From sequence record CP000711: a stretch of 40,207 nucleotides of DNA; one strand, given 5' to 3'. Origin of the DNA: Enterobacteria phage CUS-3. Shown here in pieces: positions 30,001-33,000 of this stretch (the stretch's first letter is position 1; every line of letters starts with the position of its first letter). Made by a program: the position numbers.

Positions 30001-33000
30001 TGCTTCGCTCTGCAATCTGCAATGCGCTCATTTCCATTGAGAAAATCAATACCCCGCGCCGGACGTCAGAACCAGGAATAACGCGGCTTGCAACGCCTTC
30101 GGCAATCTTCAGCGCCAGCTCGGTTTTCCCCATACCAGGACGAGCAGCGATTATCACCAGGTCTTCTGCGTTCATCCCTCCGGTGATGGCATCAAGTTCT
30201 TCGATTCCGGTCTTCAGGGTATCGGACTCTTCTCCGTTCCTCAGACGCCTGTCAAGCGTGTCAGTGTAGTCAGTAATGATTTCCCCTAACCGTACAGGTT
30301 TAACCTCGTCACGGGGCTTTCTGATGGCTGAAAGACGCTTTACAAGCTCATCCATCGCCTGACTCGATGCGTCGATGGTTCCGCTCTGAATTGGTTCACG
30401 CATTTCATCCATGATTTCCAGCACCAGACGGCGGTGATAGTTATCCGCGACCATTCCGGCATATCCCTTCAGGTTTGCGGCACTCGGGCAGTTTTTGCTG
30501 GTCATCAGGATTGCGGTGAAATGCTCCTCTCCGCACGCCTCGGCAACCATCAGCGCGTCGATTAGGTTTCTGTTTCTCGCCTGCTTGCGAATAACCTCGA
30601 AGGCTTTCCGGTAGAGCGGAATTGAAAACGCTTCCGGCTCCAGCGTTGCAAGAACGTCACTGGCGGTTGGAGTTAATCCACCAATCAGCAGGCCACCGAT
30701 AACGCTCGCTTCGATATCCTGTCTCATGCAATCCCCCTGTCTGCAAACTTCCCTTCCCGAACTCCCGTTAACGAGTCTTCTCTCAGCAGGTAATCAAAAT
30801 CAGCCGTCCAGCCCGTGTCGTTGTCTCCGAAGTAAAACGGCTTGGCCTGATGCACAAACGCCCTGACATACGCTCTGAAACCGTCCACGTTTGGCGTTTT
30901 CAGTTGCGGGATGATTTTCTTCAGGCGGCGTTTTCGTTTCTCGTTGACCGCAACAGCGTGTGGCAGTCTGTCACCGACTTCGGTGTTGTAGGCGTTCAGG
31001 AAGGATTCGTAGTCGATTCGTTCTGCCTTGCGACGTTCAGGTTTAACCTGCCCATCGCCTCCCCCATTGGGGGGTAGGGGGGTATTATTTATATTCTTGT
31101 TAATACCTTCTTGTTCATGATGTGCGGTTGTTTGTGCGGCTTCATGTGCGCTTTCATGTGCGGCATGTACGCTGAAAGCCGCGCTATTGCTGGCTTCATC
31201 ATGTGCGGCATCATGTGCGGTTGTTTGTGCGGCTTCATGTGCGGGTAAATTGTCCATTTTTTGAGCATATTCATGGTAATTTGTGATGGTTATCACACGG
31301 CCTTTTTGCTTCTCTCCATCAATGGAGATCATCCCCTCTTTCACAAAAACCTGAAGCATCCGCTCAACCTGATCACGGCTTGCTGGCTTGCCATGTCTGT
31401 CGCATAACTGAAGACCTAAATCAGCTGCTGTCACAACCAGTTGACCGGGTTGCAGATGCCATTCATGACCTTTGAAATTCGCTTTGTATGGCTTTCTGGC
31501 GGCATTCAGGAGAAGGTTTTCCCACAGGGTGCGAAGATAAACATCTTTCGCCCATGACTGTTTCAGAATGCTCCGGTACAACGGAATGTAACCAGTTTTC
31601 TGGTTCTCCATCCTGTTGCTCCTGCGCTCGTGTGCGGCGCTGAAATCGTAGATTTTTGCTGTATTGCTCATAACTACCTGCCTTGACGAAAGACCTTAAG
31701 AACATCGTTAAACTGACTTACGGATATGTCTTCTTTGAGAAGCTTTTCCAGAAATGCGTTTGGAATGAACGTATATCCCTCCTCTTTTGGTAGAGACGGG
31801 AGCAACGCCCTCGCCTCAGCCTTCAGAAGCTCAGTTCTGGCAACTTTCACAAAAGAGATTTGAGTTCTTTCATCAATGGAACGAAGGAAGCGCAAACGCT
31901 TAGCTTCTTTGTGTGTATCAGGTGGATTAAAGCCTTTGTTTCGCATATAATTACCTCGTTGGATGTTGTTAAAATTCCATTTGTATTTGATCAGAACGCT
32001 CGGTTGCCGCCGGGCGTTTTTTATTGGTGAGAATCGAAGCAACTTGTCGTGCCAATCGAGCCATGTCGTCGTCGACAACACCCCATTCAAGAACAGCAAG
32101 CAGCATTGAGAACTTTGGAATCCAGTCCCTCTTCCACCTGCTGATCTGCGACTTATCAACGCCCACAGCTTCCGCTGTCTTCTCAGTTCCAAGCATTGCG
32201 ATTTTGTTAAGCAACGCACTCTCGATTCTTAGAGCCTCGTTGCGTTTGTTTGCACGAACCATATGTAAGTATTTCCTTAACAAATAAGAAGTTATGCGCA
32301 TCAACTTATGCGCGTTGTATTCCCGCATTTCGGCGGGAATGAGGACCATGACTGTTAAAGAGCAATTTGCTTATGCCGCTTTGCGGTAAGCGCTTTCTTG
32401 ATACTTCAGGGCGCCAGCTGTAACGACTTCCAGTCGATAGGCGTCTTTCTCTGGGATGACTTCCTTCCACTGAGAGACTGCTGCGTCGCTAATGCCTAAC
32501 GCTTTAGCTACAGCACGCTGGGTTCCGAAGTGGTCGATAACATCTTTCTTGTACATAGACTCGCTCCGAAATTAAAGAACACTTAAATTATCCACTAAAG
32601 GAATCTTAAGTCAAGTTTATTTAAGATGTCTTAACTATGAAAACTCAATTGATGGGAGAGCGCATTCGCGCTCGGAGAAAAGAACTCAAGATCAGGCAGG
32701 CCGCACTTGGAAAGATGGTCGGCGTGTCTAATGTTGCCATATCTCAGTGGGAACGCTCTGAGACAGAGCCAAATGGAGAGAATCTTCTCGCCCTGGCTAA
32801 TGCGTTGAAGTGTTCCCCTGACTATCTGATGAAAGGAGAGGAAAGTCTTTCAAACATTGCCTATCACAGTAGGCATGATCCAAGAGGGTCATACCCTCTG
32901 ATTAGCTGGGTGAGCGCAGGATGCTGGATGGAAGCTGTAGAACCATATCATAAGCGTGCAATAGATAACTGGTACGATACAACCGTAGACTGTTCAGAAG

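Follow-up and report, generated by a model that had tools for sequence, protein, structure and literature searches.

Direct repeats within the replication initiator gene of Enterobacteria phage CUS-3 form the probable initiator-binding part of a prophage replication origin

The repeat array and the gene that contains it

We analyzed a 40,207-nucleotide (nt) stretch of DNA from Enterobacteria phage CUS-3 (CP000711; the whole stretch is referred to here as the window) and found within its O-like replication initiator gene an array of short direct repeats that, judging from its sequence and relatives, is very probably the initiator-binding part of the prophage replication origin, located in the part of the gene that encodes the interdomain linker. 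The array is a feature of the kind expected at this place, with an iteron anatomy that is not that of lambda. We base the assignment on the following evidence. The array follows the Phage_rep_O domain, precedes the local G+C minimum, and lies upstream of the replicative helicase gene; there is precedent in lambda and Shiga toxin (Stx) phages (PMC7466680), P22 and L (PMC8022706), SPP1 (PMC6316719), and TP901-1 and Tuc2009 (PMC8965321); the same allele occurs in the viable phages Kapi1, HF4s, JEP4, and Gally; and the array is constrained as DNA, co-varies with an Asp or His at initiator residue 100, and is inherited as one module with the initiator N-terminal domain (N-domain).

On the plus strand, positions 31117 to 31244 contain five exact copies of ATGTGCGG (at 31120, 31156, 31201, 31213, and 31237), two of TTGTGCGG (31132 and 31225), and one of ATGTGCGC (31144), for a total of eight units on a single strand, in a 12-bp register within each cluster. 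All five exact matches to ATGTGCGG in the window fall within this 128-bp stretch; 1.29 would be expected in the whole window, and a count of five was reached in none of 100 shuffles. In the sense of the gene (minus strand), the unit is a 12-mer with CCGCACAT as its end, and the units are arranged head to tail. Tandem Repeats Finder reported two arrays with a 12-bp period. Cluster 1 (31201 to 31248, minus strand) consists of four 12-bp units, in gene sense TTACCCGCACAT, GAAGCCGCACAA, ACAACCGCACAT, and GATGCCGCACAT. Cluster 2 (31120 to 31167, minus strand) likewise consists of four (CATGCCGCACAT, GAAAGCGCACAT, GAAGCCGCACAA, and ACAACCGCACAT); its sequence is the same in the Kylling strain and near identical in Klebsiella phage Kp4862-1. 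Between the clusters lies a 33-bp spacer (31168 to 31200, minus strand; GATGAAGCCAGCAATAGCGCGGCTTTCAGCGTA in gene sense, encoding the peptide DEASNSAAFSV), and an exact 31-nt direct repeat is present once in each cluster (copy 1, 31213 to 31243; copy 2, 31120 to 31150; offset, 93 bp).

A reading made from the sequence alone had claimed about eight repeat copies inside an O-like gene, with a duplicated block of ~30 bp and translation as AHEAAQTTAH peptide repeats. Each of these claims held: repeat searches returned the eight units, the duplicated block is the exact 31-nt repeat, the 315-amino-acid (aa) open reading frame (ORF) that contains the array matches Phage_rep_O and PHROG 345, and the array is translated as PAHEAAQTTAHDAAHDEASNSAAFSVHAAHESAHEAAQTTAHHEQEG, in which AHEAAQTTAH occurs twice. 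The interval given there, 31117 to 31244, stopped 4 nt short of the end of the first unit (31248) and did not take in the AT-rich tract at 31084 to 31119. A terminator-like match at 31134 to 31151 was discarded as an artifact of the repeats, as were ORFs in other frames over the array (31111 to 31248, plus strand; 31089 to 31274, minus strand), which the repeats generate.

The initiator gene (30724 to 31671, minus strand) encodes 315 aa in its long form, from the ATG at 31671. Its product matches Pfam PF04492 (Phage_rep_O) over aa 20 to 132 (E = 3e-15; 56.9 bits, with the gathering score at 28.7) and also PHROG 345 (E = 3.7e-100), a family named "replication initiation O-like." Annotations of E. 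coli genomes call it "replication protein"; for phages Kapi1 and JEP4 the label is "replication protein O." The region of aa 20 to 132 (31276 to 31614, minus strand) is predicted to be a winged-helix DNA-binding domain with its recognition helix at aa 99 to 112. In an AlphaFold2 model, the predicted local distance difference test score (pLDDT) was ~80 to 94 at aa 29 to 138, where the model has a helix at aa 44 to 56, a beta-meander, helices at aa 82 to 88 and 99 to 112, and a wing at aa 115 to 129; the helix of aa 99 to 112 holds the recognition-helix position, and residue 100 comes second in it. A PDB sequence search with the N-domain returned nothing meaningful (best E, 0.11). The array occupies gene nt 424 to 552, right behind the Pfam domain, and is translated as the linker to a C-terminal domain module of the Nil2/HK544/mEp213 type (30724 to 31083, minus strand). 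This module is ~96% identical at the nucleotide level to those of phages that have an unrelated N-domain and the same DnaB-type helicase partner, and we presume that it is the helicase-recruiting domain.

The start of the initiator gene is ambiguous. Phage records use the ATG at 31671 (315 aa), which is 2 nt past the TAG stop codon of the upstream ORF, and the Prokaryotic Genome Annotation Pipeline (PGAP) uses the ATG at 31611 (295 aa), which has AGGAG 7 nt upstream. In the structure model, pLDDT was below 50 for aa 1 to 28.

Directly after the last unit lie a conserved block encoding HEQEG (CATGAACAAGAAGG) and an AT-rich tract, which together (31084 to 31119, minus strand) form a putative DNA-unwinding element. 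The G+C content of 0.275 at 31080 to 31119 is the minimum of the 1.2-kb local profile, and the tract holds two copies of TTCTTGTT(A/C)AT (31094 to 31104 and 31108 to 31118), 14 bp apart. Repeat pairs are also present in the AT-rich tracts of other phages: two copies of ACAAAAGACAATA at 14 bp in P22 and Nil2 (1183 to 1210 in locus L005) and two copies of AACAAGAAGGTAGTT at 15 bp in locus L007 (953 to 982). By analogy, such pairs may correspond to the 13-mers of unwinding elements. The C-terminal module opens with a short G/C-rich palindrome (31057 to 31083), made up of CCCCC-ATT-GGGGG and two copies of GGGGGGTA and reported by Tandem Repeats Finder at 31069 to 31084. The palindrome is common to Nil2 and P22, and in lambda the inverted repeat I4 stands at the equivalent place after the AT-rich tract.

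The repeats are constrained as DNA and co-vary with the initiator

Our comparison covered ~170 related loci overall (160 loci were added by viral and metagenome scans), and units were taken from 18 genomes, which represent more than 10 genera of Enterobacterales and whose N-domains are 69 to 86% identical. In the 68 units of the window type (10 genomes), unit positions 5 to 12 read CCGCACAT, with positions 6, 8, and 10 invariant in all 68, and positions 1 to 4 carry only 0.1 to 0.4 bit. Position 6 falls on the third base of a codon and is a constant C over seven codons (Ala, Pro, Thr, Ser, Gly, and Val). The Ala codon is GCA in 67 of the 68 units, compared with 23 of the 127 Ala codons (18%) in the N-domains of the same genes. 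Pairwise codon identity at columns with conserved residues rose from 0.51 for the N-domain to 0.80 for the spacer and 0.91 for the HEQEG/AT block. Lactobacillus phage phiAT3, whose N-domain is 32% identical, has equivalent repeats at an 11-bp period, out of codon phase. Together, the invariant positions, the GCA bias, the synonymous conservation, and the 11-bp period in phiAT3 indicate that the constraint acts on the DNA and not on the peptide.

The core of the unit varies together with the N-domain. Seven of the 18 genomes carry CCG[C/A]GCAT, with G at core position 9 in every unit, read as GCG (synonymous Ala) or GAG (Glu), and those seven genomes, and no others of the 18, have His instead of Asp at initiator residue 100. 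Asp100 was found with A in 38 distinct N-domains and His100 with G in 6, with no exceptions; 11 further divergent His/G loci, of the HEQQ type and found by hand, were also without exception. These two core types are not cleanly split by overall N-domain identity. Two more core types were observed, each with 3+3 units and an unchanged architecture: CAyCCGAT in L007, with PQ at residues 99 and 100, and G(T/A)CGA(A/G) in Enterobacter phage ENT1, with AK at these residues. The four core types match four states of residues 99 and 100, and the Asp100/A and His100/G pairings hold throughout more than 50 distinct N-domains, in statistics that ignore phylogeny. The spacer is 33 bp long in every two-cluster relative, and its core (CCAGYAATGGCGCGGCT) is kept across all four iteron specificities, including those of L007 and ENT1; it is missing from natural one-cluster alleles.

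A lone near-copy of the unit, TCGTGTGCGGC at 31628 to 31638, was considered as an autoregulatory site and rejected; it is present in the L007 type, which has other iterons, and missing in the Klebsiella and Yersinia relatives. The record that holds L007 (OR850084.1; 2.7 kb) is labeled "Staphylococcus phage SA 1298 Kay." It encodes a lambdoid initiator of enterobacterial type together with a DnaB-type helicase and, where it matches the window gene, is 92% identical to it at the nucleotide level; evidently the Staphylococcus label is mistaken or the record is a contaminant contig.

The array is inherited with the N-domain as one module

BLAST searches with the gene gave three classes of matches. 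The first class matched over the full length at ~98% identity; the second matched gene nt 1 to 584 only, at 75 to 80% (Yersinia and Klebsiella phages); and the third matched nt 572/574 to 948 only, at ~96% in Nil2, HK544, mEp213, and many O157 prophages and at 68% in P22 gene 18. We conclude from these classes that the N-domain is inherited with the repeats and the larger part of the AT-rich tract as a single module. Its mosaic breakpoint falls within that tract (gene nt 574 to 584; window ~31088 to 31098), with the C-terminal module beginning at ~nt 574 to 589. Among about 170 loci and additional protein hits, at least five types of C-terminal domain were found joined to the N-module, and the type of C-terminal domain followed the downstream partner in all loci checked: Nil2-type and P22-type domains were paired with a DnaB-type helicase and lambda-O-type domains with a lambda-P-like loader. 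Relatives of the same N-module do pair with P-like loaders, by way of a lambda-O-type C-terminal domain.

The region is 100% identical in prophages of E. coli ATCC 11775 and APEC O1, and full-length copies were present in 272 of 5,426 complete E. coli genomes (~5%). Besides the four viable phages named above, all with the same allele, full-length copies were found in 48 records of Stx2a-converting phages. Prophages of Enterobacterales commonly carry this initiator subfamily.

Copy number is polymorphic, and the two-cluster layout is old

The sequence-only reading had taken the duplicated block as a sign of recent repeat expansion. When iteron numbers were compared with those of relatives, this was not borne out for the layout itself: two clusters with a 33-bp spacer are common to relatives in more than 10 Enterobacterales genera, and since all two-cluster relatives have 3+3 or 4+4 units and exactly 33 bp between them, the layout must be old. 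What is recent is homogenization, together with the gain and loss of 93-bp segments. At variable positions, clusters were more alike within a genome (0.62) than between genomes (0.50), a value reached in 29 of 5,000 permutations. This likeness points to ongoing homogenization, of which the exact 31-nt repeat is the product in the lineage of the window.

The 31-nt repeat is also a live substrate for deletion and duplication of 93 bp. Simulated deletion across it gave a 284-aa protein with PAHEAAQTTAHHEQEG, and simulated duplication gave a 346-aa protein with three clusters; both proteins were found in databases (P0045/P0062 and P0001/P0014, respectively). Other natural alleles have four clusters (P0010) or 5, 6, or 10 units in cluster 1, so that the number of units in cluster 1 ranges from 3 to 10 among relatives and natural alleles with one, two, three, and four clusters exist. 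The 4+4 allele predominates. It was found in 104 of 109 close relatives (viral and metagenome contigs), of which 14 have the spacer variant DEDSNGAAF and were read as 4+4 by eye (the HEQQ loci were likewise inspected by hand), and in 21 of 23 complete E. coli genomes that were sampled; this genome survey does not reliably resolve 93-bp variants, as BLAST can align the query across the internal repeat in more than one way. Protein clusters for the 4+4 form have 294, 409, and 1,458 members, and those for one-cluster forms have tens.

Two sequences depart from these alleles. In the complete E. coli genome H97 (NZ_CP196263.1) the origin segment is 400 bp instead of 401 bp, and the low-coverage metagenome contig L134 has a frameshift in cluster 2. 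Both may be pseudogenized initiators or sequencing errors in the repeat.

Relation to known origins

Initiator genes that contain origins of short direct repeats have been described before, in phage L, SPP1, and TP901-1. To place the array among known origins, we compared it with the lambdoid type, with which it shares a general plan. The repeat search used here, applied to lambda O (whose iterons are annotated in its record), P22 gene 18, and Nil2 O, returned in each case four iterons of 18 to 20 bp that are internally inverted repeats, spaced 20, 24, and 23 bp. As in these phages, the window has a Phage_rep_O initiator with repeats placed after the N-domain as a linker and followed by an AT-rich tract and then a palindrome; the putative origin lies at the mosaic joint of the N- and C-terminal modules, and transcription from pR would run through it. 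Iteron number also differs between the phages themselves, with 4 in lambda versus 6 in Stx phages (PMC7466680). The same search returned 12-bp direct units and no inverted repeats in the window and in L007. The window thus differs from lambda, P22, and Nil2 in having asymmetric 12-bp units in 3 to 6 plus 3 to 4 copies, two clusters, and a fixed 33-bp spacer, and its N-domain is divergent (Pfam E = 3e-15, compared with 1e-33 to 1e-38) and has an extra beta-meander. In its DnaB-type helicase partner it resembles P22 and not lambda, which has P.

How far the term "lambda-type origin," used in the sequence-only reading, applies therefore depends on how it is defined. It fits the broad lambdoid class, of whose marks four (a Phage_rep_O initiator, an array that serves as linker, an AT-rich tract downstream, and co-variation of repeat and N-domain) are present, with iterons in the initiator gene after the N-domain, before the AT-rich tract, and at the junction of the N- and C-terminal modules. 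It does not fit ori-lambda in the strict sense, in which the minimal O site is a 19-bp imperfect inverted repeat (PMC7466680), because the units are 12-bp direct repeats without any inverted repeat, asymmetric and in two clusters. Nor is the downstream gene that of a lambda-P-type loader that hijacks host DnaB; it encodes a DnaB-family helicase.

Phage L offers another parallel. Its gene 18 has six imprecise 11-bp repeats, TGTCCAACGGA, from which an origin was inferred on sequence grounds (PMC8022706). Like the window prophage, L is P22-like, with an O-like initiator, a DnaB-type helicase, and short direct repeats (11 to 12 bp) in the initiator gene. Its repeats have another core sequence, its initiator belongs to another subfamily, and a layout of two clusters and a spacer is not reported for it; L was not among the tblastn matches of the window N-domain. 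Similar arrangements exist in the replisome-organizer genes of phages of Firmicutes. SPP1 oriL, in gene 38, consists of direct repeats along with an AT-rich unwinding element and is bound by gp38 (PMC6316719), and TP901-1 ORF13 and Tuc2009 Rep2009 bind direct repeats inside their own genes (PMC8965321). The window shares with these the short head-to-tail repeats within the initiator's own gene and the adjoining AT-rich element; it differs in host and repeat sequence and from SPP1 also in that SPP1 relies on gp39 as a separate loader and has a second origin. The window initiator also matches PHROG families labeled "DnaD-like helicase loader," and relatives of it in Lactobacillus phages (31 to 32% identical) have 11-bp direct repeats at the same place.

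Iteron plasmids (RepA/pi/TrfA) have one-directional direct repeats, winged-helix initiators, and an adjoining AT-rich unwinding element as well, but their iterons are ~17 to 22 bp long and usually lie outside the rep gene, with DnaA boxes, whereas those of the window are 12 bp long and lie in the gene. The window initiator had no Pfam match to a plasmid Rep of the Rep_3/RepA/pi kind, and no DnaA-box match (at most one mismatch) was found between 28455 and 32588. In the replication typing of Stx phages, the Nil2-like initiator is type Eru2A, and the present N-domain type and its repeats are not described there (PMC8044961).

Proposed mechanism and alternative explanations

By analogy with characterized origins, we propose the following course of events, in which binding, stoichiometry, unwinding, and helicase recruitment are all carried over from those systems. 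After induction, transcription from pR would express cro, cII, the initiator, and the helicase and, as in lambda, would run through the origin. The N-terminal winged helix would recognize the asymmetric CCGCACAT, with residues 99 and 100, at the start of the helix of aa 99 to 112, reading the variable core position. Eight sites in the same orientation, 12 bp apart (~1.14 helical turns), would be filled head to tail, so that two packed protein arrays would flank the 33-bp spacer, as an analogue of the lambda O-some built from one-directional single sites and not from dimers on palindromes. This complex would destabilize the adjoining AT-rich tract at 31084 to 31119, and the C-terminal domain of the initiator would bring the phage DnaB-type helicase (29351 to 30727) to the opened DNA without a loader of the lambda P type. 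A bolder version, which we regard as possible but doubtful, is that this is an undescribed architecture in which single winged-helix domains fill two asymmetric 12-bp arrays, a code resides at residues 99 and 100 (RD for CCGCACAT, RH for CCGCGCAT, PQ for CAyCCGAT, and AK for GTCGAA), and the 33-bp spacer binds a second ligand.

Several observations weigh against the origin assignment or weaken its support. The origin model does not account for the spacer, which shows no co-variation with the N-domain. Natural alleles with a single cluster of three units and no spacer exist, which means that the prophages carrying them are defective or that the bulk of the array can be dispensed with. The co-variation with residue 100 may rest on few independent evolutionary events, recombination could carry the helix and the iterons together, and frequent exchange at the module joint, and not function, could be the reason why synonymous sites of the HEQEG/AT block are so highly conserved. 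The AlphaFold2 model was built on a shallow alignment of 18 sequences, and Foldseek searches with it returned weak matches (E, ~1e-2) to generic winged-helix regulators alone, which we used for fold class only. Finally, a literature search of incomplete coverage found no description of this particular origin type.

These data can also be set against other explanations. If the array were a neutral minisatellite, prone to slippage and situated where gene modules recombine, conserved only because it is young and often exchanged and without origin function, one could account for the polymorphic copy number (3, 4, 5, 6, or 10 units; one to four clusters) among near-identical alleles, for the mosaic breakpoint that adjoins the array, and for the homogenization of clusters within genomes seen in the permutation test. 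A neutral repeat would have decayed, however, whereas this array has kept its core, 12-bp period, 33-bp spacer, and two clusters across genera whose N-domains are only 69 to 86% identical and whose synonymous sites are largely randomized; moreover, the core switches in step with the recognition-helix residue, and the exact 4+4 arrangement is kept in 104 of the 109 close relatives. We therefore consider a minisatellite very unlikely. The repeats might instead matter as protein only, as a flexible His/Ala-rich linker whose four-residue peptide repeat gives the DNA period as a by-product. They are in frame as (x-x-A-H)n, with 12 bp equal to four codons, and linker length is free to vary between alleles, as for a spacer peptide. 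It is the DNA, though, that stays constant: the variable residues, and even Ala (Glu in type-B units), change while C-C-G-x-x-C-A-T stays, codon third positions are invariant with the strong excess of GCA noted above, GCA is changed synonymously to GCG in every unit of a genome, and in the relative from phiAT3 the 11-bp units do not keep to the codon phase. Of all the explanations considered, this one appears the least probable.

Plasmid iterons have known regulatory roles, and the units could by the same token bind another protein, a host factor or a phage regulator, and serve transcription control or initiator autoregulation and not origin firing. Conservation of the spacer and the HEQEG block regardless of N-domain type hints at a second ligand and is compatible with this. 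Yet the core follows the subtype of the initiator N-domain over four core types, while the helicase or loader and the C-terminal domain vary independently; no DnaA box lies near the array, and no clustered copies of the core were found elsewhere in the window. We accordingly judge such a role highly improbable and retain the array as the probable initiator-binding part of the origin.

If correct, the assignment gives a probable origin to the replication module of E. coli genomes, of viable P22-like phages, and of many Stx2a-converting phages; in Stx phages, toxin output is affected by replication capacity. The pairing of Asp100 with A and of His100 with G is a simple, testable protein-DNA specificity pair, and the alleles that differ in copy number by 93-bp steps provide a natural set of deletions with which the minimal origin could be delimited. 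The lambdoid design of iterons inside O comprises two distinct anatomies within one Pfam family. The current understanding of how such origins work is unchanged by the array.

Neighboring genes and other features of the window

The DnaB-type replicative helicase gene (29351 to 30727, minus strand) is P22 gp12-like and encodes 458 aa that match Pfam DnaB_C (E = 9.6e-78) and DnaB (E = 3.9e-13) and PHROG 19; it overlaps the stop codon of the initiator gene and is followed by ninB. Upstream of the initiator gene are cI, a P22-type cro, and cII. A candidate pR-like sigma-70 promoter lies between cI and cro (32587 to 32614, minus strand); it is a pattern match from a consensus scan, with 10 of 12 positions matching.

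Between cII and the initiator gene is a small ORF of ~90 aa (31674 to 31946, minus strand), which is listed as hypothetical both in E. coli and in Kapi1 (as Kapi1_024, for which a Phage_rep_O CDD motif is noted). Its stop codon lies 2 nt before the start of the long form of the initiator, which suggests translational coupling. A strong terminator-like hairpin at 31993 to 32020 (plus strand), AGAACGCTCGGTTGCCGCCGGGCGTTTT followed by TTATTGG, is antisense to the 3' end of cII; we take it to resemble the lambda oop/t0 terminator, which would presumably imply an oop-like antisense RNA.

An Rfam search of 30500 to 31900 returned no RNA families even at E values up to 1, and an RNA element in this region is thus not supported. 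Elsewhere in the window, positions 6497 to 6564 (plus strand) match Rfam RF00262 (84.6 bits versus a gathering score of 43), the family of the sar antisense RNA from the immI region of P22. This match indicates that the prophage is P22-like, with an ant/immI region.

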